From IMG/VR virus record IMGVR_UViG_3300034025_000034, positions 1 to 47,102 of that record: a stretch of DNA of 47,102 nucleotides; one strand, written 5' to 3'. Positions within the stretch are counted from its first letter, which is position 1; every line of letters starts with the position of its first letter. A model generated the notes under the pieces. It was not told the DNA's origin and searched no databases. It saw only the letters and a program-made list of their open reading frames with translations. A program made the position numbers and the translations under genes. The stretch comes from a virus. Shown here in pieces: positions 2,138 to 41,737 of this stretch.

Positions 2138-4083
2138 TACTGCTCGACAGTGCTAAGTTGCAAAATGTTGCTGCTAATATTTCCAAGCGCCTGACTGTCC
2201 GCCAACCTATAAATCGCCCCACGCGTAAGCCAGACATAAGCGTCATTTACAGCTCCGACAATCCAGGATGATGTGCGCGTCGAGCTGTTACCAACCCGAT
2301 GCCTCCATGCAAACCGTCCCATAGGCTCAGGCCCAGTTGACATACCCAAAAACTCCCAGGCGCTGGTGCTAGTAACATCCTCAGTCCAAACCGCCAGAGC
2401 AGTAACAGGTCCATTAATGCGGAAGGCTTCCAGTGTATAGCTGGTACGATACACCATATGCTGTGCTGCAAATGGATCAGCTTCCTGCGGAGGATCGTTT
2501 TGGCTTCCCAAGTACTCAGCGCCAGTCGCCAAAATAGCTCCCCAACTCTGTGTAGAGGTCACGCTAATGGGACCACCTGCAGAAGCAAATGGCCCGAGTG
2601 GAAACTGTGTAGCACTTGCCAGCGTCGTACGGCCGCTATTGCTAATTACGCCTGCACTGAGCGTTCCACCAAAATAAGCACTGCCGTCTGTGCGTAGATA
2701 CACCGTACCATTAGCTTCCGAGCAAGTGGTGACACTGGCTTGTGCCGGACCATACCACAGGAAAAATTGGTTGGTATTGCCAAAGCCATTACCAATGATT
2801 AGCTGCGAGCCGCCAACGGTAAATACAAACCTGCCACCTGCGACATTGATGATAGCGTCAAGCAAACCTGAGCTGAGCTTTCCAACGGTTAACTCAGCAA
2901 CTTTGGCGCTGGTGATTTGAGCGTCGCCGATCTTGGCGTTGTTGATCGCAGCATCCTGGATAAGCGCTGTGGTGATCGCAGCATTATCAATCTGCGCCGT
3001 TCCAATAGCTGCATTGGCGATCAGCGCACGTCCGATGGCTGCTCCGCCAATATACGTGCTGATGTTGCCAGACGTAAGATAGCTCACCGCAGCCAAACTG
3101 CCAAACCCTGCCGTGCGGCTAATGTCCACAGCGCCGCTTATGCGCGAAGCAAAGTCCAGCAGCCCTGTGCTTTGTGCTGCAATGTCGATTACATTCTGCA
3201 GCGCCAGCGCGCCAAACCCGGTAGTGTTGCCTGGGGCAATTACGTTGAGCAGTGCCAGGGCACCAAGCCCGGTGATGCTATTGACACCGAGCGCTCCGAT
3301 TACCTGCGTCGCAAGGTTGACCTTTGAGCCGCTGCCAAACGCCACCGACCCGTCAGGGTTATAAATGGTGATGTTCGTGCCTTCGATGCTGCCGTCCTTT
3401 AGCAGCGCCCAGCCAGCCTTAGTCGCAGGATTGTAGCTATAGCTGCTGATCACATTGCCAATCTTGGCATCCGTGATCGCAGCATCCTGGATATGCGCCA
3501 CGCCCACAGCAAGATTAGCGATCTTCCCGCTCGTCACCGCTAGGTTTGCAATCTTGGTGTTGTTGACCGCCAAGTCTGCAATCTTGGCCTCTACGATCTG
3601 GGCCTCGCCAATCTTTGCAGTGACAATCGCTGCGTCGCCGATCTTAGCCGTGACCACAGCCAGGTCTTGCATCTTTGCAGTACCCACCGCAAGGTCTTTA
3701 ATCTTAGCCTCGGTTACGGCTAGCGCCGCCAGCTTCTGCGTACCCACAGCCCCGTCAAATATCTTGTCGAACTCAACTGCACCATCACGGATTTTCTGCA
3801 CAGTGATGGCAGCTTCAGCAATCTGCGAGGTGTCAATCTGAAACAGGTCAGCAGCGGTGGGTGGATCGAACGCAGGATTGCCAAGATAAAGCTCAGCCTC
3901 TTCTTGGCTAAGCCACACAGGCGAGTAGCCGTCGGGCACGTACTGCTGCGGAGGGATAACGATGCCATTGCTACTGCCAGCAACCACACGCGTGGGATCA
4001 ACGTCAGCTTCCGCCAACGCTTGCACAAGCACCCTGGCATACTCTTGCCAGCTCTTGTAGTTGTCGGGATCAGGAAGAGCCAT
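2137..4083 (-). CDS. Tail fibre protein (648 aa) with two blocks of decapeptide repeats
   Basis: About 12 repeats of a 10-aa unit (for example AVGTAKMQDL, AVVTAKIGDA, AIVTAKIGEA) span aa 91-210. About 5 more (AAIGTAQIDN, AAITTALIQD, AAINNAKIGD) span aa 347-400. The C-terminal half is non-repetitive. The start overlaps the stop of the upstream gene (TAATG). Confidence 0.7.
   Translation of the reverse strand: MALPDPDNYKSWQEYARVLVQALAEADVDPTRVVAGSSNGIVIPPQQYVPDGYSPVWLSQEEAELYLGNPAFDPPTAADLFQIDTSQIAEAAITVQKIRDGAVEFDKIFDGAVGTQKLAALAVTEAKIKDLAVGTAKMQDLAVVTAKIGDAAIVTAKIGEAQIVEAKIADLAVNNTKIANLAVTSGKIANLAVGVAHIQDAAITDAKIGNVISSYSYNPATKAGWALLKDGSIEGTNITIYNPDGSVAFGSGSKVNLATQVIGALGVNSITGLGALALLNVIAPGNTTGFGALALQNVIDIAAQSTGLLDFASRISGAVDISRTAGFGSLAAVSYLTSGNISTYIGGAAIGRALIANAAIGTAQIDNAAITTALIQDAAINNAKIGDAQITSAKVAELTVGKLSSGLLDAIINVAGGRFVFTVGGSQLIIGNGFGNTNQFFLWYGPAQASVTTCSEANGTVYLRTDGSAYFGGTLSAGVISNSGRTTLASATQFPLGPFASAGGPISVTSTQSWGAILATGAEYLGSQNDPPQEADPFAAQHMVYRTSYTLEAFRINGPVTALAVWTEDVTSTSAWEFLGMSTGPEPMGRFAWRHRVGNSSTRTSSWIVGAVNDAYVWLTRGAIYRLADSQALGNISSNILQLSTVEQ
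2884..3045 (-). repeat. Coding tandem repeat block 2 of the tail fibre (10-aa period, about 5 units)
   Basis: Covers aa 347-400. It shares the 19-mer gatcgcagcatcctggata (2944-2962) with block 1 (3475-3493). Confidence 0.65.
3454..3813 (-). repeat. Coding tandem repeat block 1 of the tail fibre (30-nt / 10-aa period, about 12 units)
   Basis: The periodicity is visible in the translation at aa 91-210 and in recurring atcttggc/gatcgc strings in the DNA. Confidence 0.7.
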
Positions 4084-9021: not shown

Positions 9022-10026
9022 CTAGTTGTCGAAACCGCCGCCGCCCATGATGTCGGCAATTTGATCCTCGATGCTTTCGGCAGTCTGTCCACCCTGCTGT
9101 TGACGAGTTCCTGCAGCCACAAAAGCGGCTGGACGAGCGGCGGGGGTAGGCGCTGAAGCGGGCGTAGCAGGGGCAGCCGGAGCTGCAATTCCTGCCAAAG
9201 CTGCTATCTTTGCCTGTGCCCGAGCAGCCATTGCTGCCCGATAGTTTTGGTCCCATGCAGCGTTCGGCTGCTCAGCACTTAACTCTCGCGCTGCCTCGAC
9301 TACAATAGTCTTGGCGAGCGGGTTGTTGAGTGCCGGGAACTCCCCGTAGAACTCATCCTGCATGGCCTTGGCTGTTTGGGCCTCAGTCTGCTGTGCAGTT
9401 TCCTGCTGGCGGCGCTCATCGCGCTGCTGCAAGGTCGTCTTCAGCGTGGTTTCGTATTCCGCTTTCACGCGCGTATGGATCGTGGATGCCAGCCCTCGGA
9501 CCAGCACGTTCATGGCCGAAGCGGCCTGTGCTGCATCTTCCGAGAAGATGGCGCTGGTCAGCTGTTCCGGGAGCACAAGCTCGTCATAAGACACCGGGAC
9601 GACAGTCTCCGGCTTAGCAGGTTCCTGGGCGGCTGGGGTTGGGGCTGCAGGAGCGGCAGCAGGTGCTGCTGAACGCGCCATAAGCTGGTCGAACTGCTCT
9701 TGGGTCAGTACAACCTGACCGGGAGCAGGTGCAGCGGGTGCTGCTGGGGTCGGAGCAGGTGCCGGCGCAGCAGGTGCGGGTTGCACCACAGGAGCTGCGG
9801 GTGCCGGTTCTGCGCCCACCTGGGGCGAAGGAGCTTCCAGAGGCCCATCGAGCGTCTGTGCGGCTGGTACGGGAGCGGAGGAAGGAGCATCAACCCCCGC
9901 TCCCGGCTGCGCTGCAGGTTCGGTGGGGGCACCTTGGCCTGCAGCAGCAACTTCGGCAGGAAGCTCGAAGACGGATGCCATCTGAGCTTCTTGATCTGCG
10001 ATAGTTTCCGGCGAGAAATCAACCAT
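9022..10026 (-). CDS. Scaffolding protein (334 aa from ATG 10026; the ORF track starts at 10062)
   Basis: It has an acidic N-terminus, a long Ala/Pro low-complexity linker (PAPAAPVVQPAPAAPAPAPTPAAPAAPAPG) and a helical charged C-terminal half. It lies between portal and capsid. I preferred MVDFSPE (ATG 10026, SD GGAAGGAG upstream), which overlaps the upstream stop by 8 nt. Confidence 0.65.
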   Translation of the reverse strand: MVDFSPETIADQEAQMASVFELPAEVAAAGQGAPTEPAAQPGAGVDAPSSAPVPAAQTLDGPLEAPSPQVGAEPAPAAPVVQPAPAAPAPAPTPAAPAAPAPGQVVLTQEQFDQLMARSAAPAAAPAAPTPAAQEPAKPETVVPVSYDELVLPEQLTSAIFSEDAAQAASAMNVLVRGLASTIHTRVKAEYETTLKTTLQQRDERRQQETAQQTEAQTAKAMQDEFYGEFPALNNPLAKTIVVEAARELSAEQPNAAWDQNYRAAMAARAQAKIAALAGIAAPAAPATPASAPTPAARPAAFVAAGTRQQQGGQTAESIEDQIADIMGGGGFDN

Positions 10027-10336
10027 TCGAGTTATCCTTTGCTCCTTCCGCTGCTTGCGCAACGTGGCTCTGTTCTAACAGCGTATCCCGCAAGAGATCA
10101 ATGCCTTGCGCGCGTCCTTGTAACACGGACGCCTGGGCCACTGCGCTTGGCGAGTTAAGCGGCGTGTTGGAGAGCGACACAAAGATTGCCTGCCGTGAAC
10201 CGAGCATGAGGCTAAGCAGCGCACCCATGCCTGGGTGTCCAAGGAGCTTCAACAGCTCCACGCGCTCTACATCGTCCAGCTCAGCTTTTGGCGGCTGGCT
10301 CTCTAGCCAGGCTTGCGCGCTTGAATAGTCTGTCAT
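10019..10336 (-). CDS. Hypothetical head-module protein (105 aa)
   Basis: SD GGAG precedes the ATG at 10336. It lies between portal and scaffold. Confidence 0.5.
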   Translation of the reverse strand: MTDYSSAQAWLESQPPKAELDDVERVELLKLLGHPGMGALLSLMLGSRQAIFVSLSNTPLNSPSAVAQASVLQGRAQGIDLLRDTLLEQSHVAQAAEGAKDNSNG

Positions 10337-10355: not shown

Positions 10356-10390
10356 ATGTACCACATTTCGTTGAACGGAATGTAACACAT
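10356..10390 (-). promoter_or_regulatory. Copy A of the conserved 35-bp quasi-palindrome (minus-strand orientation)
   Basis: The reverse complement atgtgttacattccgttcaacgaaatgtggtacat matches copy B (22001-22035) at 32/35 positions. It lies between the portal stop (10400) and the next start (10336). Confidence 0.8.
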
Positions 10391-14180: not shown

Positions 14181-14656
14181 GGCACGAGCAACGTAGGCGT
14201 AGGATCGCTGGCCAGCCAGCCGAGGGGCAGCAGCAGCCCGGCCATGCTCTTGATCGGCTCATGCTTCAGGCCCCGCACATTGCCCACCAACATCAGCGGA
14301 AACGTGCGCACGCCGAAGGCTGAGCTAACAATGGGCAGATACTCGTCGAGCAGCTTTCTATCTCGGCCGCTCTCCCAGTTCTTCTTTACCTCGATCACAA
14401 GGGCAATCTTCCTGTCAGCTTGAACAAGAACCGCATCAGGCGAACGCAGCTTCGCTTTTCCCGCTGTGTGGAACCAGGGCTCAACATACAACTTCCATTC
14501 GGGCAGGGACAAAGCACAATGAAGTTTGAGCAGCTTGTAGATGCGCCGATGGTATCGGATACCTGCTTCGATGGCACTGTTCGTCGCCTTCTTAGTGTTG
14601 GTACTCGCGCCCATCAGGGCCTTCTCGCTATGATACCACTGCTCAGCGCTACGCAT
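14177..14656 (-). CDS. PD-(D/E)XK-type nuclease (159 aa from ATG 14656)
   Basis: The motif is SPDAVLVQADRKIALVIEVKKN (PD ... E-V-K). Its start overlaps the small-terminase stop by 8 nt, and its stop overlaps the terL start (ATGA at 14177-14180). Confidence 0.6.
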   Translation of the reverse strand: MRSAEQWYHSEKALMGASTNTKKATNSAIEAGIRYHRRIYKLLKLHCALSLPEWKLYVEPWFHTAGKAKLRSPDAVLVQADRKIALVIEVKKNWESGRDRKLLDEYLPIVSSAFGVRTFPLMLVGNVRGLKHEPIKSMAGLLLPLGWLASDPTPTLLVP

Positions 14657-15302
14657 CCTTGGGCGCCTCGAGCACGCGCTGCTTAGCTTGCTCAAGCGGA
14701 ATGAGCAGCTCTCGGCTACCTGCACGCGCCTTCTGATTGAGCTCCTGGATGCGCGCATGGTCGATCAGGTGATGTTCCTCGACCACCTTGCTGGTGCTCT
14801 GCGGACCGTGGCCGCTGCGGTCCAGGCCCAGCTTCGCAATGCCGATCAGCTCGTTGACATCTTCGATGCTGTCGATCTTGTCGCTGAGCTTTTCAAGCGC
14901 TCGACCGCCGACCGTCCGCAGCCGTTCACCGATGACCTGCGCTGCACTGCCGTGCTGCAGCCGATACATTTCGATCAGCTCTTTCATAGCAGGATTGTTC
15001 AGCAACACACTAAGATACGGTGCTGTGTAGCCTGTGATCGTGGCGACCAGCTCCTGCTGCAAGCCCTGAGCCAGCAGCCGCGCAACGCTGTGGTGCTTCT
15101 CTTTGATCTTCTTCAGGTTGCCGGGGTCGTCCAGCTCCTGAATAGCTGCACTTGGCATCGGCGCATGCTCGTCCCCAGCCTCTTGCCCCCCACCGAGCAA
15201 GCTGGCCAGGTCTTCTGCCTCCAAAATGCCCTCAACCGTACAGGTGACAATAGTGCCGATCGGCCCCACCGCGTCCAGGTCTAGGTTATGCAGCCCGCTC
15301 AT
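14649..15302 (-). CDS. Putative terminase small subunit (217 aa from ATG 15302)
   Basis: SD AAGGAG precedes the ATG at 15302 (MSGLHNLDL). It has an HTH-like segment, HHSVARLLAQGLQQELVATITGYTAPYLSVLL. It is the first gene of the packaging operon. The longer ORF to 15521 lacks an SD and would run through a hairpin and promoter. Confidence 0.55.
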   Translation of the reverse strand: MSGLHNLDLDAVGPIGTIVTCTVEGILEAEDLASLLGGGQEAGDEHAPMPSAAIQELDDPGNLKKIKEKHHSVARLLAQGLQQELVATITGYTAPYLSVLLNNPAMKELIEMYRLQHGSAAQVIGERLRTVGGRALEKLSDKIDSIEDVNELIGIAKLGLDRSGHGPQSTSKVVEEHHLIDHARIQELNQKARAGSRELLIPLEQAKQRVLEAPKDA

Positions 15303-15430: not shown

Positions 15431-17824
15431 TTAGTACCTCGAAGCTGCTCCCGCCTTTACGTCCAGCAGTGCCTGAAGGCCGTAAGCCGGGTCCTCGCCC
15501 TGGTAGGACTGCAGCCCCCACTGGTAGACGAAGAAGGGATTGCCCTCAGTGTCGCCATACTGCATGTAGAGGTCGCCGTAGTTCACCTTCCAGTAGTTAA
15601 GATGCGCGTACATCATCTTATAGTAGCTGATGCTGGTGCGGAAGGCCAGGATTTCACCAGGACTCAGCGCCGACTTGTCGACGTTCTGGAAGGCAAAGTC
15701 TGCCGCACCCTCGTAGCATATGCATCTGTGCCCGTTGGCCTTTGCCCGAGTAAAGGTACCCGAGAGGTTCTGCAGGATTTGCACGCTGCGCGGAACATAG
15801 ATGGTTTCCAGCGAGGCTGGCAGCTTATTCGGTAGCGCCAGGATTTCAGCCTTCGTGCACTGAATGTACGGAGCAACGGCGATAGCGTGAATGTTGCTCG
15901 GGCCGATCTGCGAGATAGCCATGTCATAGCTGCCCCCGCCCAGCGACGTAGCCATTACAAAAACAATGCGCCCGTTCCAGTTAGGTGCAGTGGCCTTGAT
16001 GCAGTTAGCCATGCGATTGTACTGGAACGCATGCTCTTTGTATCCCTGCTCGACGCCACCGTTGCCGTCACCCAGCTCTGTTTCGCCTGTGCGCGCAGCA
16101 TACCTTGCACGATCCTGCCGGAACACGCTAAAGCCTGCGTTCCAAGTTTCGTTGCTGCGCTCGAAGTACCACTTGAGCCCGAGCGACAAACCATTACTCC
16201 AGGGCTTGCCTTGCGACAGGTTTGCGCCCGTTGTGATGGCAATGGTGAGCTGCTCGACATAGTCGTTTGTCGCATTGGCTGGGATAGGCATCCACATATC
16301 GCGCCCTGTAGCGTTACAGAACTCGATGCAGAACTCGATCGCCATGCCGTCCAGGCCAGGATACACCTTGTCAGGCGTGGTTCGCATAGCCCACGTAAGC
16401 TCGGTGTTGTTGTTGTTAATGAACCTCACATCCATGAAGCGCGCAGCACCATTGTACCCGTTCGCGGGCTGGTGCATGTTAAGGTAGCTGGGCGCCCAGC
16501 TGGAGTTGCGATCCTCACCAAAGGTGTAGAGCTTGATGTTCTTGGGGTAGTTCACGCTGGTAGGATTGAGCACCATCGAAGCGCGCGGCAGGTTGTTGAA
16601 GTCCACAGTGACGTTGCGCGAGAAGCTCTCGTTCCAGCTAATTACGTTGGGGCTCTCAACGGTGAGGTTGGTTAGCCCTGGCACACTAAGCGTTGCCAAG
16701 GTGCCGTCGCCTTCCCAGGTAAGGACGCGCTTTGTCCCCTCCCCGTCGCCGAGGCCGATGTACTTCTTGATGCCGCTGACCGTTGGATAGCCTTGAGCAT
16801 CCAACTCGCCCGCAGTCAGCGCTGAGTTGTCCGACGCATGGAACACTCCATCCTGCGTGACCCTGTAACCATTGGCGATGCGCCTGAACTGTGTGGACGA
16901 GTCCACATTCATCAGATTGGCGCCGAACGCCGGGAGAGCAGCGGGCATATCAAGCGTCACTGGCACGCTATAGCCAGACTCCACGTTGTTGATGATCTCG
17001 TATAGGCGGGCAACGACTTTGGTGCCGAACTGCGCAGAGGTGTACGTGGAAGCGGCTACAGCCCTCAACTTAGTCGGCGTCAGCTGTGTCACGGTGGCAG
17101 GTAGCTTCGCGCTGAGCGGCGTGCCGTCGACCTGAAACAACTGCATGTTGTAGCCAGTGTGGTTCGGGCCTGTGTAGTTGAACTCGACCGCAGGACGGAA
17201 GCTGTTATCCAGCGAGGAGGCAGTCACAGAGATCGCCACTGCATTGCCTTGCGCGCGCAAATTGCTCAGGTTTGAACCTAGCGCCGTGCCGCTGATGTCG
17301 CCGTGCATCGACACGAAAGTGCCTGCTGAGGCAAACTGCGCAGCGAAGCGCGAGTTCATGTCAGACGCACTGTTGCTGATGAGGACTGTGCCGTCACTTA
17401 CGCGCGAGGCAGATAGCGACTTATCGACGCCTATGGTGATGATGCAAGGCGTGCCAGCCGTCGGGGTAAACGCATAAGCGATCGTCCTGCTGGCAGTGGT
17501 TTCTACTCCATCCGTCCAGCGCGCAAGCGATACCTGAGTGCCGCCAAAGCGTATCTTAATAGCGTTGCCGGTCGGCGGCCATAGCTGTGCGCCGTCAGTC
17601 CGCAGCATCAAGATGTCGAACGTGTTGCCGTTTCCTGTAGGCCAGTCGAACAGGAATGATTGAGCGACACTCTCCGTGTCATAGGGGAAGAAGTTCTTGC
17701 CTGAGCGCAAACCGCTGATCTTTGGCACAGGGCCATCAAGAATAGTGATCGCTCCAGGCAACACTACTCCCGCACGCAAACGCGACAGCGCCTGACCGCG
17801 CGCACGAGGACCAACGAAACTCAT
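15431..17824 (-). CDS. Virion-associated polysaccharide depolymerase candidate (797 aa): N-terminal beta-rich region plus a C-terminal clan GH-A-like glycoside hydrolase domain
   Basis: The C-terminal ~340 aa show TIM-barrel glycosidase hallmarks, including LKWYFERSNETWN. The Asn-Glu pair is at codons 16148-16153, as in the acid/base NE motif of clan GH-A. The segment GMAIEFCIEFCNATGRDMWMPIP also fits. The gene is ATGA-coupled to the upstream glycine-rich protein. Confidence 0.55.
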   Translation of the reverse strand: MSFVGPRARGQALSRLRAGVVLPGAITILDGPVPKISGLRSGKNFFPYDTESVAQSFLFDWPTGNGNTFDILMLRTDGAQLWPPTGNAIKIRFGGTQVSLARWTDGVETTASRTIAYAFTPTAGTPCIITIGVDKSLSASRVSDGTVLISNSASDMNSRFAAQFASAGTFVSMHGDISGTALGSNLSNLRAQGNAVAISVTASSLDNSFRPAVEFNYTGPNHTGYNMQLFQVDGTPLSAKLPATVTQLTPTKLRAVAASTYTSAQFGTKVVARLYEIINNVESGYSVPVTLDMPAALPAFGANLMNVDSSTQFRRIANGYRVTQDGVFHASDNSALTAGELDAQGYPTVSGIKKYIGLGDGEGTKRVLTWEGDGTLATLSVPGLTNLTVESPNVISWNESFSRNVTVDFNNLPRASMVLNPTSVNYPKNIKLYTFGEDRNSSWAPSYLNMHQPANGYNGAARFMDVRFINNNNTELTWAMRTTPDKVYPGLDGMAIEFCIEFCNATGRDMWMPIPANATNDYVEQLTIAITTGANLSQGKPWSNGLSLGLKWYFERSNETWNAGFSVFRQDRARYAARTGETELGDGNGGVEQGYKEHAFQYNRMANCIKATAPNWNGRIVFVMATSLGGGSYDMAISQIGPSNIHAIAVAPYIQCTKAEILALPNKLPASLETIYVPRSVQILQNLSGTFTRAKANGHRCICYEGAADFAFQNVDKSALSPGEILAFRTSISYYKMMYAHLNYWKVNYGDLYMQYGDTEGNPFFVYQWGLQSYQGEDPAYGLQALLDVKAGAASRY

Positions 17825-18699
17825 ACGAAATACTCCAAGATGATGCCGCCGTTGCCGGCCGCTGCTCCGGTAGCGTTGATGCCGCCGCCCGAACCGGCAC
17901 CAAAGCCTGTGACCACGCCGCCGGGACTTGTGCCCTGCCGACTACCGCCGCCCGAGCCCGAGCCTGGACCCCGCTTGGTGCCCCCATCCAGCGCATAGAT
18001 GCCGTCCGTGGAGCCAGCACCACCTGAGCCCCCAGCAACATCGCCAGCACCAGAACCGCCGCCACCATTCGAGCCCGCGTTGCCGTTCGCGACTCCTGCT
18101 TGTGAAGCGCCTCCGCCTGTCCCTAAGCGGTTATTACCGCCTGCGCCGGGGTTGGCGACGTTGCCAGCTGAACCGTTTGTGCCGCCGTTTGTACCACCTC
18201 CGCCACCTGCACCCGCACCGCTTGAGGCTCCGCCGCTTCCGCCGTTTCCGTTTGGGCCCGCTGCCGCGCCACCGCCGCAACCTGGTCGACCGATCGCGCT
18301 GGTGAACCCGCCCGCACCGCCGCTGAACACCACGTCGCCCACCGACGATGCAGCTAGCCCCGCAACGCCGCCAACAGTCGTGCTGTTGGTTCCATTCAGC
18401 CCTGCCTTAGCCAGCACTGTCGCCGTGCTATCGAACCAGCTGTCTAGACCTGAACCCTCAGCGCCAATCTGATAAGCGACCGTTTGGCCCGCTGCCGCAA
18501 GAAAGACAGTTTTTTGCGCATAGGCACCACCCCCACCGCCCGCATAGGCGAGGTTAGTTGCCGTGCTGGTGAAGCCCCGTCCCCCAGGCCCATGCACATG
18601 TATCTTGCCTGTGCCCGGCCAGTCTGCGGGCATGACGAAGCTGGTCGCCCCAAGCGGCACCTCCACGAAACGCGTGGTCGGCACCCGAGGCTTGCTCAT
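17821..18699 (-). CDS. Glycine-rich-domain protein (292 aa from ATG 18699), phage fibre/receptor-binding-associated type
   Basis: The N-terminus is MSKPRVPTTRFVEVPLGATSFVMPADWPGTGKIHVHGPGGRG, followed by AYAGGGGGAYAQ and long GGxGG tracts, and it ends GGIILEYFV. The upstream part of the ORF (18700-18957) overlaps the preceding gene and is not protein-like. Confidence 0.6.
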   Translation of the reverse strand: MSKPRVPTTRFVEVPLGATSFVMPADWPGTGKIHVHGPGGRGFTSTATNLAYAGGGGGAYAQKTVFLAAAGQTVAYQIGAEGSGLDSWFDSTATVLAKAGLNGTNSTTVGGVAGLAASSVGDVVFSGGAGGFTSAIGRPGCGGGAAAGPNGNGGSGGASSGAGAGGGGGTNGGTNGSAGNVANPGAGGNNRLGTGGGASQAGVANGNAGSNGGGGSGAGDVAGGSGGAGSTDGIYALDGGTKRGPGSGSGGGSRQGTSPGGVVTGFGAGSGGGINATGAAAGNGGIILEYFV

Positions 18700-18736
18700 C
18701 AGCTGGTTGCGTCGCGCGCCCGCCCGCAACACTGGC

Positions 18737-19390
18737 TTAGTCCCGGAAGACTTCGAGGCGCACGCTGTACGTCGCGCCCGAGGTAACAGTGATGGCACTG
18801 CGTGCTTCGAGCAAGCCGTAAATGAGCTTGCTGCCGGCAACAACCGGATTGGTCGTGGCAGACAGCGTGTGGAAGTTGATCTCGCCGCCCAAGCGGGGAA
18901 CAGCAATGCCGCCGACGCCATCGGAGAACAAGCTGTCGAGCGTGCCCTCGAGCGCACCCATGTAGAGCGCCGTTAGGCCGTTGACCGAGAACGCCCCGCT
19001 GTCCCCATTCGCAACCACCGGCGAGTTACGGAACAGATGCAGCCGCACAGCTGCGTTGATATCCGTCAGAGCTGAGGAGAAAATGCGTGCTCGGCGGATG
19101 CTGCCGGTGCCGCCCTCGACGCGCGCCACCTCGAAGTTCATCGGCACGACGCTGCCAGCAGTTGCCGAGTTGGCAATCAGATCGCCAGCCGCATAGTTGT
19201 TCGTATCTGCTGGCCGCTGATAGGGCGAAGGCAGCTGCGGCACGACTGCGGACAGGCCGACAACCGCAGCAGGCGTTGCGTCTTGCAGCGCCGCCTTGAT
19301 TGCAACCAGTTCATTCTTCTCCGCGAGATAGAGGGCCTGCATTTCTTGCGCTGTGAGCAGGTCTACGCCGGCGACGGGGCTCCAAGTCAT
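18737..19390 (-). CDS. Hypothetical virion-cassette protein (217 aa from ATG 19390)
   Basis: It has an ATGA overlap with the stop of 19387..20196. The composition is beta-rich. I see no recognisable motif. Confidence 0.5.
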   Translation of the reverse strand: MTWSPVAGVDLLTAQEMQALYLAEKNELVAIKAALQDATPAAVVGLSAVVPQLPSPYQRPADTNNYAAGDLIANSATAGSVVPMNFEVARVEGGTGSIRRARIFSSALTDINAAVRLHLFRNSPVVANGDSGAFSVNGLTALYMGALEGTLDSLFSDGVGGIAVPRLGGEINFHTLSATTNPVVAGSKLIYGLLEARSAITVTSGATYSVRLEVFRD

Positions 19391-20792: not shown

Positions 20793-20998
20793 CGGGGCGC
20801 TTGACGCCGTGTGGCACTGCTTTGGCAGCTCCAGGCTGTTGTGCTGTTTGCAGGCTCGGTGGCTGCACGTAGGCTGAAATCTTGTGGGGAAATCCGCGCT
20901 TGTGCCTCCGAGGGGGCACGGCATCGCGCAGGGGAGGAAGGGGGGTAGGAGGCATGGGTGCCCTAGCTGAGCAACACACCATGCGATGTTATAACCTC

Positions 20999-21071
20999 AC
21001 GCATGTTGTGCAGGTGCGAACGCTTACGCATGCTCTAGACGCAAGCAACGCATGCAATCTGAGCACGCATG
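20999..21071. promoter_or_regulatory. Array of four ACGCATG boxes (operator-like) in the divergent control region
   Basis: ACGCATG occurs at 20999-21005, 21026-21032, 21048-21054 and 21065-21071. The outer two read CACGCATGTT. The inner two contain the palindrome GCATGC. An inverted CATGCG lies at 20980-20985. Confidence 0.5.
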
Positions 21072-21073
21072 TT

Positions 21074-21103
21074 TCTGCATTTAGGTATTGCAAGTGGTAC
21101 ACT
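21074..21103 (+). promoter_or_regulatory. Candidate extended -10 promoter for gene 21134..21760
   Basis: TGgTACACT at 21095-21103 gives TG plus a TACACT hexamer. The -35 is weak (tctgca) and overlaps ACGCATG box 4. It lies about 30 nt upstream of the ATG at 21134. Confidence 0.35.
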
Positions 21104-21133
21104 TTGAGCCCACATAGGGGGTGCGGCAAGGGA

Positions 21134-21760
21134 ATGGCCCCGAGTCGCAAAGCAAAGGCAAAGCACATGTTTGAAGTCACCATTTCGCTGCCCGCAACGA
21201 TCACCGTCCCCTTGGGCGATACGGGGAAGTCGACCGAGGTTGCGATCCAGTCGATTGCCCGCAATCCTGACGTGCTTCGCTTCGCACTGCTTAACGGGTT
21301 CATGGGCGCGCTGAACAACATCAGCCGCGGCAAGGACGAAGCCAGCGGCAAGCCGAACAGCGACGACGTCTGGGCCGCAGCCCGCGCTAAGAAGGTCGAC
21401 ACGTGGCTTGCGGGCGAGTGGGCAGCACGCGCATCGGGCGGCGAGCGCCAGAGCAGCATGATCCGTGAAGCCTATGTTGACTTTGTCAAGCGCGAGACCA
21501 AGGCGACGCAGGGGCAAGTGGATGCGAGTATTAAGGCTCTTGTGGTCGAGATGTTCGGCAAGGATGAGAGCGCCACGTTTGCCCGGTTCATGGATGCCTG
21601 GGCGCTAAAGCGTGCGCGCAAGGACGGCGACGACAGCGAGCAGAACATCGCAACGGTCCGCGAAGCCTTCGAGAGTAAGTTCCGTAAGATGGCAGAGGCA
21701 GCAGCCGCAAGTCGTGCCAAGGCCGCAAGCAAGCTCGACCTTAGCGACTTGGATATCTAA
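21134..21760 (+). CDS. Hypothetical protein, a stand-alone transcription unit (208 aa; alternative start at 21167)
   Basis: The ORF is in frame from 20882, but the region upstream of 21134 carries the operator array and promoter. The N-terminus MAPSRKAKAKH is Lys-rich and the C-terminus is Ala-rich and helical. A canonical terminator follows. Confidence 0.6.
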   Translation: MAPSRKAKAKHMFEVTISLPATITVPLGDTGKSTEVAIQSIARNPDVLRFALLNGFMGALNNISRGKDEASGKPNSDDVWAAARAKKVDTWLAGEWAARASGGERQSSMIREAYVDFVKRETKATQGQVDASIKALVVEMFGKDESATFARFMDAWALKRARKDGDDSEQNIATVREAFESKFRKMAEAAAASRAKAASKLDLSDLDI

Positions 21761-21788
21761 CCTGCACGACCCCGTCGGCACCTACCAG

Positions 21789-21819
21789 CCCCCGCCCAGC
21801 AAGCGGGGGTTTTTCTTTG
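21789..21819 (+). terminator. Rho-independent terminator
   Basis: cccccgc (21789-21795), loop ccagcaa, gcggggg (21803-21809), then tttttcttt. Confidence 0.8.
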
Positions 21820-22000
21820 AGTAGAGCAGATGCCAAGGCTGCATGGCCGGGGAACGAGATATGCCATTGGCGCGCTGCAGAAATCTTTGTCAGCTACGGC
21901 TAACAAGGCTTGCACGACTAGCAAGGCAGACACGAATTGGAGGCATACCCATACAGCTGAGCGCACGTATGACAGACTTTGAGCGCCTGACCGATTGCGC

Positions 22001-22035
22001 GTGTGTTACATTCCGTTCGCCGAAATGTGGTACAT
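22001..22035 (+). promoter_or_regulatory. Copy B of the conserved 35-bp quasi-palindrome
   Basis: The sequence is gtgtgttacattccgttcgccgaaatgtggtacat. It lies in the non-coding stretch between the terminator at 21819 and the first early gene. Confidence 0.8.
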
Positions 22036-22104
22036 AGCCAATGCTTCAGGCTGCACGACTATACGTAGGCTCCTCAACGTGTGAGTGGCAATCTGGGTGT
22101 ATTA

Positions 22105-22152
22105 CCTACTCTACTCTTTAAATTTTTTTTTTTTCTGAAGGTAGGGAGTAGG
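22105..22152. other. T12 homopolymer (22123-22134) in an AT-rich patch flanked by an imperfect inverted repeat
   Basis: cctactctactc (22105-22116) and gtagggagtagg (22141-22152) flank tttaaattttttttttttctgaag. This is the only long homopolymer I noticed while reading the window. Confidence 0.6.
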
Positions 22153-22192
22153 GGAATGGAGCATCGGACATAGCACTGGAGCGTCAGTGGGT

Positions 22193-22204
22193 ATGTAACA
22201 CATA
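22193..22204 (-). promoter_or_regulatory. Isolated half-site of the 35-bp element
   Basis: atgtaacacata is identical to the 12 nt at 10379-10390 plus 10391 of copy A. It lies 80 nt upstream of the first early gene. Confidence 0.4.
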
Positions 22205-22283
22205 CGTCCAACTGCACGGGTGGCCCTCCAATTCGTTTATGCCATACTTGCTATCTTACCCATGCAAGCAATAGGAGCGCACC

Positions 22284-23438: not shown

Positions 23439-23634
23439 GCTCATTAGCTGCATAGTCACAAGCGAGTCTGGCGACCAACTCCGCGTCGCGGACTTCGGCG
23501 ACGAGCGTGTGTTCATGGACATAAGCTGCGTAGACATCGACGATCGTGCCAGCATCGACCTGCCCAAAAGCAGCGTGCGCGCCCTCGCAGCTTTCCTCAA
23601 CGACTTCCTCGAAAGGCATCCCGACAATGGCTAA
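23431..23634 (+). CDS. Hypothetical early protein (67 aa)
   Basis: The ATG at 23431 overlaps the end of the preceding gene (its TAA stop is at 23436-23438). The protein is acidic. Confidence 0.45.
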   Translation: MTKLISCIVTSESGDQLRVADFGDERVFMDISCVDIDDRASIDLPKSSVRALAAFLNDFLERHPDNG

Positions 23635-27297: not shown

Positions 27298-27349
27298 GGC
27301 GGGTGTGCCATGTATTACATTCCGTCGAACGGAACGTGGTACACCCGCC
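27298..27349 (+). promoter_or_regulatory. Copy C of the 35-bp element (core 27310-27344) embedded in an extended 52-nt hairpin
   Basis: The core is atgtattacattccgtcgaacggaacgtggtacac. It is flanked by ggcgggtgt (27298-27306) and acacccgcc (27341-27349), which are perfect reverse complements. Confidence 0.8.
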
Positions 27350-27589: not shown

Positions 27590-27616
27590 CCTCATCCCAT
27601 GCAAGGAGCATCTAGC

Positions 27617-28003
27617 ATGACCACGTTCGACCCCACGCAGCTGAGCGACGAGCAGCTTGTCGCAGCCGCCAATGAATACATCCAGCGCACCGTCAAGCGC
27701 ATGCGCGAGCTAGGTATGGATGATACAATGTACTTCAGCATCTCTAACTATGTTTGGAAGCATGAGGACAAGTACACTATCAATCATCAGCTACATTACA
27801 AACCTAACGGCGGCAAGGAGTTGCAGCTTGAAGGGGGCAACCTCTTTCAGCTGGTCAACAAGCATGCAGCCATCCTCGATCTGCCTATCGACCCGCCGCA
27901 TGCTGTGGCCCCCATGCTTCCCGCACCTCCACCGCCTAGCGAGCCCGACAGCGGCTATGCTGAATTCACAGAAGTCGACGACGAGGATGACGTGCCTTTC
28001 TAG
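27617..28003 (+). CDS. Small protein with an SSB-like architecture: folded N-domain, Pro-rich linker and acidic tip DDEDDVPF (128 aa)
   Basis: SD AAGGAG lies 8 nt upstream of the ATG at 27617. The C-terminus reads ...PPHAVAPMLPAPPPPSEPDSGYAEFTEVDDEDDVPF. Bacterial SSB ends in DDDIPF. Confidence 0.6.
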   Translation: MTTFDPTQLSDEQLVAAANEYIQRTVKRMRELGMDDTMYFSISNYVWKHEDKYTINHQLHYKPNGGKELQLEGGNLFQLVNKHAAILDLPIDPPHAVAPMLPAPPPPSEPDSGYAEFTEVDDEDDVPF

Positions 28004-28028
28004 GCGTCCCCGTTAAGTAATACATGCT

Positions 28029-28056
28029 GGGGCATAGGCTATAGCTCCTATGCCCC
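28029..28056 (+). terminator. Strong hairpin (10-bp perfect stem) after gene 27617..28003
   Basis: ggggcatagg (28029-28038), loop ctatagct, cctatgcccc (28047-28056). There is no U tract. Confidence 0.4.
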
Positions 28057-28115
28057 GGCTGCGCTATCTTAGCCTTGCAGCGCCTTTGCTGCACAGCAAC
28101 AAGGACTCCCATGTC

Positions 28116-28496
28116 ATGGCCGACAAAGCGCCCACCACCTCGACCCCCACGCCTTCTGCTTCCACTGTCACGCCCGCGATCGAGGGCCTCAAGCTCGATC
28201 CGCTTGCCGTGCGCGAGCAGGAGGCGGGCACCCGCCGAGCCGATGGCGGCGGCACGCTCCAGTACGAGCCGAAGCCGGAAGACTATCCCGCAGCCGCGAA
28301 GATCACGCCCCCGGCCGAGCAGCTCAACGGCAGCCTGTCGCAGGCTGTCAGCCAGGCAAGCGACAGCAAGCTCAGCGCACAGCTGGGCACTGCCGCTGAA
28401 GAGGCACAGGCGACGATCGACGCTGCCATCGAGGCTACTGACAAGCGTTTCGAACAGGAGCGCAAGGCTAAGGTAGCCGCACAGCTCGCGAGCTAA
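28116..28496 (+). CDS. Hypothetical protein (126 aa), Ala/Thr/Pro-rich
   Basis: The ATG at 28116 is in frame within ORF 28050..28496. It lies downstream of the hairpin. Confidence 0.45.
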   Translation: MADKAPTTSTPTPSASTVTPAIEGLKLDPLAVREQEAGTRRADGGGTLQYEPKPEDYPAAAKITPPAEQLNGSLSQAVSQASDSKLSAQLGTAAEEAQATIDAAIEATDKRFEQERKAKVAAQLAS

Positions 28497-30615: not shown

Positions 30616-30873
30616 ATGCCTAAACTTCAGGCTGGCCCCCACTTCGATGCAGTCGCCGTGCTTCAAGTCGTCGGCGAGCAGGAGACTGGGCTGCAAGTCA
30701 GCACCAATAATCCTGAGCGGTTCCGCGCCATCCTCTACGAGACCATGCGCGCGCATCCACTCTTGCGCTGCTTCATCTACGCATGGCCTAGGACGACTAA
30801 CCGCTTCGCCCTCTTGCGCAAGCAAATCCCCGGTGCCGCCCAGCTACAGGAGCCAAGCGATGGCAACCTCTAA
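30616..30873 (+). CDS. Hypothetical small protein (85 aa)
   Basis: SD AAGGAG lies 6 nt upstream of the ATG at 30616. It overlaps the RHH gene by 14 nt. Confidence 0.55.
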   Translation: MPKLQAGPHFDAVAVLQVVGEQETGLQVSTNNPERFRAILYETMRAHPLLRCFIYAWPRTTNRFALLRKQIPGAAQLQEPSDGNL

Positions 30874-31096
30874 CGCCGACACATGCCACACGATCCGCTT
30901 GCCAGCCGGCATGGCAGATCAAATACGCATTGCCAGCGGTCAGCCGCTTAGCAAGCTGCTGCGCTACATGTGCCGCCAATACCTGCAGCTTGAGACCAAC
31001 AAGCGGGCACAGGCTGCCGGCCGCATGGCCCTGACCCCCAGCGAGCAGCTGGAGGCAGACATCGCGGACATCAAGCTGCCGGGAGAAGAAGCATGA
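30860..31096 (+). CDS. Putative ribbon-helix-helix (CopG/Arc-like) DNA-binding protein (78 aa)
   Basis: CHTIRLPAGMADQIRIASGQPLSKLLRYMCRQYL fits a beta-strand/helix/helix RHH layout. Confidence 0.45.
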   Translation: MATSNADTCHTIRLPAGMADQIRIASGQPLSKLLRYMCRQYLQLETNKRAQAAGRMALTPSEQLEADIADIKLPGEEA

Positions 31097-37624: not shown

Positions 37625-37922
37625 TGCCATCAACCCCTCGCACTACCGAGACCATCCATCAGGTGTCGAGTGCATAACCATTACGGAGCACATGGGCTTC
37701 CTGCTTGGCAACGCTGTGAAGTACATCTGGCGTGCTGGGCAGAAAGGAGATTACATCGAGGACCTCAAGAAGGCTCGATGGTATCTCGACCGTGAGATCA
37801 GCAACGTAGAAAAGAAGCGAGCAGAACATGCCCCCATCTCTTCCCTGGCCGATGTACAGTCCCGCAGAGAACAGCTCTGGACCCAAACTTGTGCTGCTTG
37901 GCGAAGCGCCTGGAGAAGATGA
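37614..37922 (+). CDS. DUF3310-family protein (102 aa)
   Basis: The sequence INPSHYRDHPSGVECITITEHMGFLLGNAVKYIWRAGQKGDYIEDLKKARWYLDREI matches the NPxHY ... GNAxKY ... DLxKAxxY signature. The 3' 95 nt overlap the next gene. Confidence 0.7.
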   Translation: MQRDAINPSHYRDHPSGVECITITEHMGFLLGNAVKYIWRAGQKGDYIEDLKKARWYLDREISNVEKKRAEHAPISSLADVQSRREQLWTQTCAAWRSAWRR

Positions 37923-38910
37923 AGACAAGGCTGGCGTTCCCTTCGTGGGCGCCAGCGGTCGGTTGCTCAAGCGTGACCTGATGCCCAGCGCTGGGCTGGA
38001 CCCCTCTGATTGGCACATGCTCAATGTCTTTACGTCTCGTCCCCCCAACAACGACCTCAAGCTCTGGACGGCCAACAAGACTGAGCTCAAAAAGCTGGGT
38101 CAAGTCCCGCAGGGCGATCCTCTCAACAAGCGGTTCCTGTTGGCTGAGCATCGCCACCATCTTGCAGAGCTCGACGCACGCTTACGACAGCTTGCGCCTG
38201 ACCTTATTCTCTGCCTTGGGGGTACTGCGCTCTGGGCCATTAGCGGTGATGGCGCAATTGGCACTCACAGGGGTACGTTCTTTCGGTCCAGATACGGTCT
38301 GGCTATCGCAACCTACCACCCCGCTGCAATACTTCGTCAATGGAGCAACAAACCTGTCGCATGGGCAGATATGCGAAAAGTGGCTGCGCATCTAGACGGC
38401 ACGCTAACGCCGCCCCTGCGCCGGCGGTTCTATGTCAACCCAAGCTGGCAGGAGATTGCAGAGGTCTATAGCATCTTTGCGGCCAATCCCAGCTGGATGC
38501 TGGGTGTCGACATTGAGACCTGCCCAGGCATCGACCAGATCACCACCATCAGCTTCTGCACTCCGACGCTCGGCATCTGCATCCCGATTTGGGACAAGAA
38601 CAACGTCAGCGGGGGACACAACTATTGGGCCACTGTGAGCGACGAACGCAAGGCTTGGCGCTGGATCAACCGCTTCGCACAGCTGGCTAATCCCAAGGTT
38701 CTGCAAAATGGGCTGTACGATAGCCAGTACCTACTGGACGCACCTATTGACATTCGTCTCAGACATTGGCAAGATGACGACGCGATTTTGCATCACGCTC
38801 TGCAGCCCGAGTTGCAGAAGTCGCTGGGGTTCCTATCTAGCATCTACCTGAATGAGCCAAGCTGGAAGCAGATGAGAACCTCAAACAAGGACGCGAAAGC
38901 GGACGAATAG
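37828..38910 (+). CDS. DNA polymerase I, N-terminal fragment: family-4 UDG-like domain plus 3'-5' exonuclease motifs Exo I and Exo II (360 aa)
   Basis: The UDG-4 motifs are LLGEAPGEDEDKAGVPFVG and TYHPAAILRQ. Exo I is GVDIETC and Exo II is LQNGLYDSQYLL. The ORF ends at TAG 38908-38910. An alternative start is the ATG at 37852. Confidence 0.85.
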   Translation: MPPSLPWPMYSPAENSSGPKLVLLGEAPGEDEDKAGVPFVGASGRLLKRDLMPSAGLDPSDWHMLNVFTSRPPNNDLKLWTANKTELKKLGQVPQGDPLNKRFLLAEHRHHLAELDARLRQLAPDLILCLGGTALWAISGDGAIGTHRGTFFRSRYGLAIATYHPAAILRQWSNKPVAWADMRKVAAHLDGTLTPPLRRRFYVNPSWQEIAEVYSIFAANPSWMLGVDIETCPGIDQITTISFCTPTLGICIPIWDKNNVSGGHNYWATVSDERKAWRWINRFAQLANPKVLQNGLYDSQYLLDAPIDIRLRHWQDDDAILHHALQPELQKSLGFLSSIYLNEPSWKQMRTSNKDAKADE

Positions 38911-38925
38911 GAGCACAGGGGGCAC

Positions 38926-40479
38926 ATGCCTTACATCGAAATAGAGGGTGAAATCCCCCAAGGTCTCGACAGCTATACAAACTATCAGGTTTATAATTGT
39001 CTAGACTCGGCTATCACCGCACAACTTCTTCCTGTCCTTAAAAGCAATCTCAACGCTGCAACCGCCACGGTCTACAACCGTGAGATGCGGGTGCTGGCGC
39101 TGTGCCTTGAGATGTCCACGAAAGGATTTCCCGTTGACCAGATGTGCCTGTCCAGTTTGCTGTTTGATCTCCAGCGGGATGCTGCCCGAGCGCTTGCTGT
39201 CTTACATAGGCTCTGTGCCGCAGTCGACTTCCGACCGATTAATCCACGAAGCAGTGTCGACGTTCCTGATCTCTTCTACCGCCACTTGGCCTTGCCTGAG
39301 ATTTGGGAGTTCGACCGGAAGACAAACCAGCGCAAGCTCAGCGCTGACATCAAAGCCCTAGAGAAGCTGCAGCATAACTATCCCATTGCTCGCCCGTTCG
39401 TGAACGCGATCATCAGCTATCGCGAGAGCAGCAAGATGGCCAGTGTCTTCAGCCGCGGGCTAGAGCCTGTGACGGGTAACTTGCGCTGCAACTTCAGCCC
39501 GAGCGGCACAGAGACCGGCCGCTTGAGCAGCCAACAAAACCCCTACCAGCGAGGCACCAATGGGCAGAACATTACGGACCGCATCCGGCAAGTTGTTACC
39601 GCCCCTCCCGGCTTTGCCATACTCAACTTCGACCTTAAAACAGCTGAGTCGGTTGCCGTGGGCTATATCTCTGGAGATCGAGCGTACATTGACGCTTGCG
39701 AAGGAGGCGACCTCCACACAGGGGTCTGTAAACTGGTGTGGCCTCACATGGACTGGACCGGAGATAGAAAGGTTGACAAAGCTATTGCAGAGTCACCTTT
39801 CTACCGTCATTTCAGCTATCGGGACCAAGCTAAGCGCGGGGGACACGGCAGCAACTATTATGGACAACCCTCAACAATTGCAGGAATTATCAACGTACCT
39901 ACAAAGTTTGTTGAAGACTTTCAGCGAAACTACTTTGACGCCTTCCCCGGCATCCCTGAGTGGCACCTAAACGTTATCGCCCAGGTCCAACGCTTCGGCA
40001 CCATTACCACGCAGCTCAAGCGTGAGCGGCGCTTTTGGGGCCGGCCTGATGACAAGGCCACATGGCGCGAGGCAATTGCGTTCGAGCCGCAATCTCTCGT
40101 CGGGGATATTATGAATGAAGGGCTCATCCAAGTCCAGCAGTGGATCAAGCAGCAGCTGCCCGAGGCAAAGACGCTGCTCGGCCGCGGCAAGCGCCTCCTC
40201 GAGTTTAACCCACGCGTCCCTGATCTTCGAGCGCAGATACATGATGCCGGGGTGTTCATCGTGCCCCTTGATGGTATTGCTGAGATCGCTCGAGAGCTGA
40301 CGCAGCGCCTTCAGTATCCCATCCACTTCCCAGGCGTAGGCGACATGCTTATCAAGAACGACGTGCTGATCGGCAAGCGGTGGAACAAGGCTCACAAGGG
40401 CGAGACCCACAGGTTCCTGAAGCAAGGGCTCCGTGACTATGAGCCTGGTGACGACGTCAGCTGGTTGCGTGAAGCATGA
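38926..40479 (+). CDS. DNA polymerase I, C-terminal fragment: Exo III motif plus the polymerase domain (517 aa)
   Basis: Exo III is YQVYNCLDSAITAQLL. Motif A is ILNFDLKTAESVAV, motif B is RDQAKRGGHGSNYYGQP and motif C is QIHDAGVF. It is in the same reading frame as 37828..38910. Confidence 0.9.
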   Translation: MPYIEIEGEIPQGLDSYTNYQVYNCLDSAITAQLLPVLKSNLNAATATVYNREMRVLALCLEMSTKGFPVDQMCLSSLLFDLQRDAARALAVLHRLCAAVDFRPINPRSSVDVPDLFYRHLALPEIWEFDRKTNQRKLSADIKALEKLQHNYPIARPFVNAIISYRESSKMASVFSRGLEPVTGNLRCNFSPSGTETGRLSSQQNPYQRGTNGQNITDRIRQVVTAPPGFAILNFDLKTAESVAVGYISGDRAYIDACEGGDLHTGVCKLVWPHMDWTGDRKVDKAIAESPFYRHFSYRDQAKRGGHGSNYYGQPSTIAGIINVPTKFVEDFQRNYFDAFPGIPEWHLNVIAQVQRFGTITTQLKRERRFWGRPDDKATWREAIAFEPQSLVGDIMNEGLIQVQQWIKQQLPEAKTLLGRGKRLLEFNPRVPDLRAQIHDAGVFIVPLDGIAEIARELTQRLQYPIHFPGVGDMLIKNDVLIGKRWNKAHKGETHRFLKQGLRDYEPGDDVSWLREA

Positions 40480-41708: not shown

Positions 41709-41737
41709 TACATTCCGTTAGACGAAATGTAACACAC
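41703..41737 (+). promoter_or_regulatory. Copy D of the 35-bp quasi-palindrome, filling the gap between the convergent arms
   Basis: The sequence is atgtaatacattccgttagacgaaatgtaacacac. It overlaps the TAA at 41706-41708 and ends 3 nt before the minus-strand stop at 41740-41742. Confidence 0.8.

Follow-up and report, generated by a model that had tools for sequence, protein, structure and literature searches.

A conserved 33-bp bipartite palindrome at gene-block junctions of uncultured podovirus-like phages, a candidate protein-binding site

In Cluster A mycobacteriophages such as L5 and Bxb1, elongating RNA polymerase is stopped by a phage protein that is bound at sites known as stoperators (PMC9283540, PMC6550527). 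Stoperators are the closest analogue of the element described here, which is carried by IMG/VR virus record IMGVR_UViG_3300034025_000034 (47,102 nt, the whole stretch that was analyzed and is called the window below), but the element is not a member of the stoperator family. Both are short conserved sites that are repeated over the phage genome, lie in short intergenic gaps, are oriented with transcription and have a sequence that co-varies with the phage. However, stoperators are asymmetric, 13-14 bp long, present in 20-30 copies and bound by the monomeric immunity repressor of temperate phages, while the element is bipartite, palindromic, 33 bp long and present in 2-5 copies, and its binding and blocking are putative.

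Conserved imperfect hairpins with an internal loop are found in T7-like phages, where the RNase III sites (R0.3 to R18.5) are located between the genes of polycistronic units and are syntenic in relatives. These sites span about 50-60 nt and lie within transcribed regions; each has two stems of about 10 bp, and it is their structure that is conserved. The element resembles them as an imperfect hairpin with an internal loop at syntenic intergenic positions, but its stems reach 12-14 bp at most, seven of its cores do not pair, a G·U bias is absent and one copy is apparently untranscribed. RHH operators, such as the MetJ met-boxes, those of Arc/Mnt, the omega heptads and the NikR site (GTATGA-N16-TCATAC), are built from short palindromic or repeated units in direct or inverted arrangement and are bound by cooperating dimers; the two half-operators of NikR are about two helical turns apart. 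Short units that are usable in direct or inverted orientation are common to these operators and the element, whereas none of them has an exact counterpart of the element's 24-bp distance between units or of its conserved asymmetric centre. REP/BIME sequences are imperfect palindromes of about 35 bp with a conserved mismatch that are extragenic, at operon ends or between genes, and the element is alike in length, imperfect symmetry, extragenic location and conserved mismatch. REPs form host-chromosome families of hundreds of copies, are GC-rich and are linked to RAYT transposases, in contrast to the element, which is phage-borne, AT-rich and found in few copies at syntenic positions. The hairpin promoters of the N4 virion RNA polymerase have 5-7-bp stems and 3-nt loops and are clustered at the early genome end. 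They share with the element that they are conserved inverted repeats of a podovirus genome and possible DNA hairpins, but no virion or other phage RNA polymerase was detectable in the window genome. Because the structural genes of the window are SU10/phiEco32-like, the gp36 sigma promoters of these phages were also compared with the element. In phiEco32, these promoters carry AATGTA centred at -11.5 and 6-8 nt upstream of the transcription start site, with -12T and -11G being critical (PMC12276001; PMC4281155). The likeness consists of a related structural module and an AATGTA-like hexamer with invariant G and T, while the element differs in being palindromic, in having a copy at a convergent junction and in belonging to a phage in which no gp36 homologue was detected.

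The window is a complete podovirus-like genome. Since its two ends overlap by 127 bp, the assembly is circular and the genome measures about 46,975 bp. The phage is also present in the runs SRR10954383 and ERZ27253112. The encoded proteins include an SU10-type portal, a major capsid protein and an adaptor (Pfam families), a large terminase, a UvrD-like helicase, a ParB-methyltransferase fusion, a DUF3987 primase/helicase, a UDG-like protein and a family-A DNA polymerase. A 1356-aa protein resembles an ejection protein and a 797-aa protein resembles a fibre-like protein. No RNA polymerase or sigma domain was detected among the window proteins in the Pfam and PHROGs scans, and no integrase or repressor domain was found among the window proteins scanned. 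The tRNA scan of the window was negative, and no Rfam family reached its gathering threshold anywhere in the window. The closest cultured relative was Caulobacter phage Kuura, with a portal identity of 35%; megablast of 10 kb against cultured phages gave no match, and a portal profile search found no prophage. Homologues of the portal, primase and helicase led to a large uncultured family, with 252 portal homologues at E < 1e-50 and longest contigs of about 43-48 kb.

The original prediction described a 35-bp quasi-palindrome in four intergenic copies, at 10356-10390 on the minus strand (copy A) and at 22001-22035, 27310-27344 and 41703-41737 on the plus strand (copies B, C and D). All four copies were confirmed, and a recount gave the same 22 invariant positions of 35 and the same 32/35 agreement between copies A and B. 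The palindrome exists as described, but the conserved core comprises 33 bp, the outermost positions of the 35-mer being variable. The PWM scan that had been proposed gave 48-55 bits for the four copies and at most 12 bits for the rest of the window. A degenerate 33-nt pattern (up to three mismatches) retrieved four sites in the window and none in 100 dinucleotide-preserving shuffles; each site was matched on both strands since the sites are palindromic. The 12-nt half-site at 22193-22204 and the TGGTACACT at 21095-21103, both noticed earlier, were also found.

Copy A (core 10357-10389, minus strand) starts 10 nt past the stop codon of the portal gene and ends 9 nt ahead of the AGGAG of the gene at 10019-10336. 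Copy B (22002-22034, plus strand) lies within a 520-nt non-coding hub (21761-22283) between gene p197 and the early genes. Copy C (27311-27343, plus strand) starts 21 nt past the helicase stop codon and ends 33 nt ahead of the ATG at 27377 of a gene for a 70-aa protein. Copy D (41704-41736) occupies a gap of 31 nt, on one side of which the primase gene ends (stop at 41708) and on the other the convergent gene of the 1356-aa virion protein (stop at 41740); its overlap with the primase stop codon amounts to 6 nt, and 3 nt separate its end from the stop of the convergent gene.

Loci were retrieved from 12 related uncultured genomes whose portal identity to the window was 57-70%. A covariance model was built from the first 19 copies and then used to search the related loci. 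A helicase-anchored scan of IMG/VR picked up too many generic UvrD motifs, gave no relative with more than 39% identity and was replaced by exact-protein look-ups. In total, 29 elements were detected in 13 genomes, and every one of them was intergenic, syntenic and exactly 33 bp long, with no indel. The expectation that the motif should occur at the equivalent junctions of related phages was thus borne out in the 12 relatives. The element is real, ancient within the clade and functionally constrained.

The near-universal sites were the convergent junction and the origin-like non-coding hub. A D-type copy was present at the convergent junction of every relative in which that junction was sampled, and a B-type copy in the gap between p197 and the early genes was found in six relatives (L008, L009, L020, L028, L137 and L142). 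The optional sites follow the portal gene, the helicase cluster and, in a single genome, the capsid gene. The post-portal (A-type) copy occurred in six relatives and was missing where the portal gene and the next gene abut (g20, k119 and n142). The C-type copy, 5' of the homologue of the 70-aa gene, occurred in three relatives (L133, L052 and, in degenerate form, L132) and was not found in L134. No copy was present in the gap upstream of the whole structural arm in any genome. Kuura and other distant loci had no motif, and the convergent gap of Kuura holds a canonical terminator in place of the element. An IMG/VR scan with the inner core (TACATTCCG-N5-CGRAAYGT) returned seven loci, none of which had outer units or related genes, and these were judged consistent with chance.

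The main alignment contained 22 elements from 10 genomes and was made before the last three genomes were retrieved. Its invariant columns were T3, A7, C8, A9, G26, T27, A31 and C32, while T1 and G2 were conserved in at least 90%. These columns form two 9-bp YGT-N3-ACA units that are 24 bp apart from centre to centre, and the seven later elements match the pattern YGT-N3-ACR. The spacing corresponds to about 2.3 helical turns, and the two units are therefore not on the same face of the helix. In full, the element consists of two mini-palindromes of 9-11 bp, (A)YGT-N3-ACA(T), around a partly palindromic and slightly asymmetric core, WTTYC...GMAAW, in which a pyrimidine mismatch close to the stem top is found repeatedly among the genomes. 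With 24-52% GC, the elements are AT-rich compared with their genomes (about 59% GC).

Of the 29 elements, 11 had inverted N3 cores in their two units, seven had direct and 11 had unrelated ones. Direct and inverted arrangements occurred together in one genome (n142), and the direct ones included the convergent-junction copies of g20 and s335. A direct arrangement cannot pair. The type of the unit, taken up to reverse complement, was specific to the genome, since 63 of 104 within-genome pairs between elements matched as compared with 22.9 +/- 6.5 after shuffling, and 0 of 5000 shuffles reached 63. Such agreement within genomes could also reflect gene conversion between copies instead of co-evolution with a binder. 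The symmetry of the arms covaried as well: 78.5% of the cells paired versus 68.5% in shuffles, 36 cells versus 18 were changed on both sides, and the covariation exceeded both the shuffled and the slid-partner controls. Arm covariation and perfect N3 complementarity in 11 elements would be predicted by a hairpin, too.

The orientation of the element was said to follow local transcription. The call of orientation is based only on the asymmetric centre of a near-palindrome. The centre pointed the same way as the flanking genes in the window and in most of the relatives, the one exception being the B copy of g9. Copy D, moreover, folds far better on the opposite strand. It had further been argued that a mismatch conserved at the same stem position indicates an oriented function; this holds for the centre, but the outer arms are orientation-agnostic units and not one oriented stem.

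Copy B was thought to precede the early genes at the divergence of the two arms. It is actually located 3' of p197 and its terminator, within the origin-like hub. The gene p197 (21167-21760, plus strand) is a real gene with homologues in at least eight relatives, and the short minus-strand ORFs at 20989-21966 were rejected as genes by codon usage, public gene calls of the same phage and homology. The AlphaFold model of p197 had a pLDDT of 48 and was unusable. A canonical terminator, a GC-rich hairpin plus T-run, follows p197 at 21787-21820 (plus strand) and is conserved in five genomes. Ordinary intrinsic terminators are thus used in this phage family.

The order of the hub was shared by six genomes including the window: p197 and its terminator, a conserved block GCCGCCGGGG...GGGAAATTT, an iteron-like cluster, the 33-bp element, a single unit, a T12-25 tract, a second single unit, an inverted iteron cluster, and the early promoter and genes. 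The iteron-like repeats are genome-specific and form two inverted clusters flanking the T-tract. The T-tract of the window (22122-22135, plus strand), which belongs to the context of copy B and lies outside the motif, is kept in all relatives examined. Isolated single units were present at conserved spots around it in at least five genomes. In the window, one such unit, ATGTAACACAT (22193-22203), lies about 60 nt downstream of the T13 tract and has equivalents in L020, L028, L137 and L142. A degenerate unit, TGTATTACC (22098-22106), lies just upstream of the tract, with the counterparts TGTTACC in L020 and GTAATACC in L009. The early promoter of L008 is a consensus sigma-70 promoter (TTGACA-17-TATAAT). 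The hub thus resembles an origin of replication together with a region for early regulation.

Every copy lies just 3' of a same-strand gene, including the post-capsid copy of one relative and the copies at the 3' ends of both arms, which would suit an RNA hairpin punctuating polycistronic mRNAs, that is, a site of RNase III/E-type processing and/or one that stabilises 3' ends or causes factor-dependent termination, and that could serve both strands at the convergent junction. We consider this explanation unlikely. It is consistent with several convergent-junction copies being perfect Watson-Crick palindromes of 12-14 bp, with compensatory N3 changes among the convergent-junction copies (GGG/CCC, AAT/ATT, GTT/AAC and ATG/CAT), with covariation above the shuffled and slid-partner controls, with the recurrence of the stem-top pyrimidine mismatch among genomes, and with the element taking the slot of Kuura's canonical terminator. 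However, seven of 29 elements have direct N3 cores that cannot form a stem, and the family is defined by invariant bases and not by pairing, Y25 being kept even when it breaks the pair with A9. Single units would be unable to form a hairpin at all, and there is no Rfam match. With the strand set by the orientation of the core, symmetric positions included 23 G·T against 43 A·C combinations, so there is no sign of a wobble tolerance specific to the sense transcript. The stems are AT-rich and lack a U-tract, and the sense-strand RNA folds were weak: z-scores ranged from -1.2 to -2.8, and copies A, B and D had energies of -8 to -13 kcal/mol with z-scores of -1.2 to -2.7. Fold quality was about equal on both strands except for copy D, which reached -18.1 kcal/mol on the minus strand versus -8.4 on the plus strand. 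The extent of the paired arms and the apparent loop vary while the total length stays at 33 bp, and such fixed spacing suits a protein-DNA geometry better than a hairpin. Copy B, moreover, is probably untranscribed because it lies 3' of a strong canonical terminator and 5' of what is, in relatives, a sigma-70 early promoter. The G·T and A·C counts, the weak folds, the AT-richness, the fixed length and the probable lack of transcription of copy B together favour recognition of double-stranded DNA, and we favour a protein that would read each 9-bp unit regardless of its polarity. An intrinsic terminator was also considered and rejected, as the terminator scan called 0/4 copies and the sense folds are weak with no T-run.

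DNA recognition could also be that of a middle or late promoter specific to the phage, used by the host RNA polymerase with a phage sigma-like or accessory factor, with the left unit near -35 and the right arm (A-W-Y-G-T-N) acting as the AATGTA of the phiEco32/SU10 gp36 promoters. Portal, MCP and adaptor belong to an SU10/phiEco32-like structural module (Pfam families), and in most copies positions 23-28 of the element match AATGTA fully or with one difference, G26 and T27 never varying. In that register, +1 would fall 4 nt past the element. At the C copies this is 29-36 nt ahead of the start codon, and at the post-portal copies it immediately precedes the Shine-Dalgarno sequence, except in L025, in which the predicted +1 falls inside that sequence. 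An additional promoter would be useful for the capsid and middle gene blocks, and it is these that the optional copies precede. Nevertheless, such a promoter seems quite unlikely. The best-conserved copy of every genome lies between convergent stop codons and would yield antisense RNA only, and all genomes lack a copy in the main gap that precedes the structural arm. Neither phmmer against all window ORFs (E > 1) nor hhalign of gp36 against 16 window protein families (probability at most 1.1%) detected a gp36 homologue, and the Pfam and PHROGs scans gave no sigma domain. The phiEco32 promoters are non-palindromic and have no upstream TGT-N3-ACA unit, and the right unit of the element may be flipped or C-rich (GTCCCACA). 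Other promoter and operator classes were tried and rejected. Reading the arms as sigma-70 hexamers (GTTACA ... TGGTACATT) gives a spacing of 19-20 bp and a -10-like hexamer that ends in C in nearly all family members; the consensus sequences of sigma-54, ECF, CRP, LexA, the DnaA box, IHF, TyrR and P2 Ogr (TGT-N12-ACA), compared by eye, did not fit the invariant positions; and an N4-type hairpin promoter was dismissed as no RNA polymerase domain was detected among the window proteins. A site for replication or genome maintenance, read by an origin, terminus or architectural protein or extruded as a cruciform, with copy B at the origin and copy D where the forks converge, would account for the origin-like hub of copy B with its two inverted iteron-like clusters around the T12-25 tract. 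The near-universal B and D copies are roughly opposite on the circle (19.7 and 27.3 kb apart), and transcription of both gene arms proceeds from the B side towards D, which would make replication and transcription co-directional. This explanation is improbable, as it leaves the optional copies in the portal/scaffold gap, after the capsid gene and after the helicase cluster unexplained, the repeats specific to the hub are iterons and not the 33-bp element, and no homology or experiment ties a replication protein to the motif. A variant of it invokes gyrase or REP-like sites at junctions where supercoils accumulate. The 33-nt pattern of the window, however, had no exact match in 185,579 species-representative bacterial and archaeal genomes, which speaks against a host REP family at least among these genomes.

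The explanation that we tentatively prefer, at a little less than even chances, is a bipartite double-stranded DNA site for a sequence-specific phage-encoded protein that would mark the boundaries of transcription units. Among the roles listed in the original prediction, an operator or roadblock is thus the one favoured by the comparative data, while an RNA hairpin and a simple promoter are weakened. The sites might act as operators or as transcription roadblocks, loosely in the manner of stoperators. At the convergent junction, the bound protein would form a two-way barrier to RNA polymerase in the slot held by the canonical terminator of Kuura. The internal copies (post-portal, after the helicase cluster and, in one relative, post-capsid) may gate or insulate read-through into the next gene block, and the element of the hub, together with the single units around the T-tract, may control or insulate early transcription and/or the origin. 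A barrier at copy A, with the scaffold and capsid genes immediately following, is difficult to explain except as a partial or timed one or as one that is also a promoter. The space between the element and the Shine-Dalgarno sequence is 2-10 nt, in which no promoter fits.

A conserved 78-aa RHH-like protein (30860-31096, plus strand) is put forward, purely as a hypothesis, as the candidate binder of the element. Wherever the region was sampled in a motif-bearing genome, even in the most distant of these, the protein was present, and it had no match in the motif-less Kuura; this co-occurrence of protein and motif is confounded with clade membership. In the protein, an invariant T-[IV]-R-L-P strand, the putative DNA contact, precedes two helices. 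In the model, the helices span residues 18-26 and 30-53, and the sequence pattern is strand-helix-turn-helix. Pfam RHH_1 was hit at E = 0.073 by just one homologue, a search of PDB sequences gave no match, and the low-confidence single-sequence AlphaFold model (pLDDT 64) had no Foldseek match. Both this protein and the HTH protein at 22284 (p204) had been named as possible binders. The former stays a candidate owing to its conservation across the motif-bearing genomes, although its fold assignment is weak, whereas p204 is a poor candidate because it is not conserved in the relatives.

Going further, a lytic freshwater-type podovirus clade may have swapped the intrinsic terminator of its convergent junction for a self-encoded punctuation, consisting of a co-evolving RHH-like protein and a 33-bp site with genome-specific N3 cores. 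This would be a bidirectional and possibly timed insulator that ties an origin-like hub to the boundaries of gene blocks. We regard this scenario as speculative and unlikely; if true, it would place stoperator-like logic outside the actinobacteriophages and make it independent of lysogeny. Should the element be a protein roadblock or insulator, stoperator-type regulation would be extended to lytic phages of Gram-negative hosts, and small orthogonal insulator parts might become available, each genome having its own unit type. If it turns out to be ordinary, such as a late promoter or a processing hairpin, the boundaries of transcription units would still be annotated throughout the clade. For this large uncultured family of phages of about 43-48 kb (more than 250 portal homologues in public metagenomes), the element provides a compact handle on the expression programme: each genome offers 2-5 sites at defined boundaries, in which the invariant bases are clear and of which natural variants exist. 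The element also marks the probable origin region.

The unit sequence itself was over-represented in the window. TGT-N3-ACA occurred 18 times, as compared with 8.1 +/- 2.7 expected, and eight of these occurrences were parts of the four copies or of the single unit in the hub. Seven of the eight were located in the non-coding 4.8% of the genome, and the eighth was the left unit of copy D, which overlaps the primase stop codon.

The origin-like non-coding hub, which extends from the end of p197, the plus-strand 197-aa gene upstream of it, to the early genes (21761-22283 in the window), was conserved throughout the clade. Counterparts were located in the related uncultured genomes L008 (1950-2800), L009 (660-1570), L020 (2350-3100), L028 (100-945), L137 (280-880) and L142 (5150-5990). 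In each hub, a tract of 12-25 T residues lies between two inverted clusters of iteron-like repeats, and the repeats themselves are genome-specific. The clusters of the window hub are at about 21900-21927 and about 22245-22270, and its T-tract is at 22122-22135. In the relatives, a consensus sigma-70 promoter is found immediately downstream of the hub.

The region 21095-21820 is an isolated host-type transcription unit. It is composed of the extended -10-like sequence TGGTACACT (21095-21103), the conserved gene p197 (21167-21760, plus strand) and a canonical terminator with a GC-hairpin and T-run (21787-21820), the last of which was kept in five genomes. Codon usage indicated that the minus-strand ORFs drawn across this region are non-coding. 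Another non-coding block, G(T/G)GGGGAAAT(T/C)TT, was likewise conserved, often with GCCGCCGGGG ahead of it. It occurs in two to three copies per genome, all in one orientation, with one site upstream of p197, where the genes diverge across a gap, and one past the p197 terminator (20882-20895 and 21875-21889 in the window; about 6440-6470 in L133; about 2670-2760 in L132).

An additional copy of the 33-bp bipartite palindromic element was detected in one relative, L142 (SRR29654728_15382), at 14642-14674, where it separates the major capsid gene from its neighbour downstream; the window has no element at this junction. A degenerate single unit, i.e., an isolated version of one of the two 9-bp units of the element, was noted in the window at 28016-28024 (AGTAATACA) and may represent a weak site or one that has decayed. 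It is located in the 46-nt gap that separates the genes at 27599-28003 and 28050-28496. The distant relative Caulobacter phage Kuura shares the two-arm architecture of the window but has neither the 33-bp element nor the RHH-like protein, and its convergent junction (23560-23610) carries a canonical terminator with a GC hairpin and T5.

The window is a complete, circularly assembled genome of about 46,975 bp. Its two ends have an exact 127-bp overlap in common (1-127 and 46976-47102), and the minus-strand gene arm crosses their junction.

Within the 149-aa ORF at 30647-31096, an internal start at 30860 gives the conserved 78-aa RHH-like protein, and the part upstream of this start is probably not coding. 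The DNA polymerase (37828-40479) appears to be split: a 360-aa protein with a UDG-superfamily domain and a further match to a phage polymerase profile, in the N-terminal part of the latter, comes first, and a family-A polymerase domain of 517 aa comes next. The 648-aa tail gene, which gave a weak Phage_Tail_Tip match, contains internal imperfect repeats with a 30-nt period (2896-3023 and 3457-3524), and the 378-aa ORF at 17821-18957 is glycine-rich.
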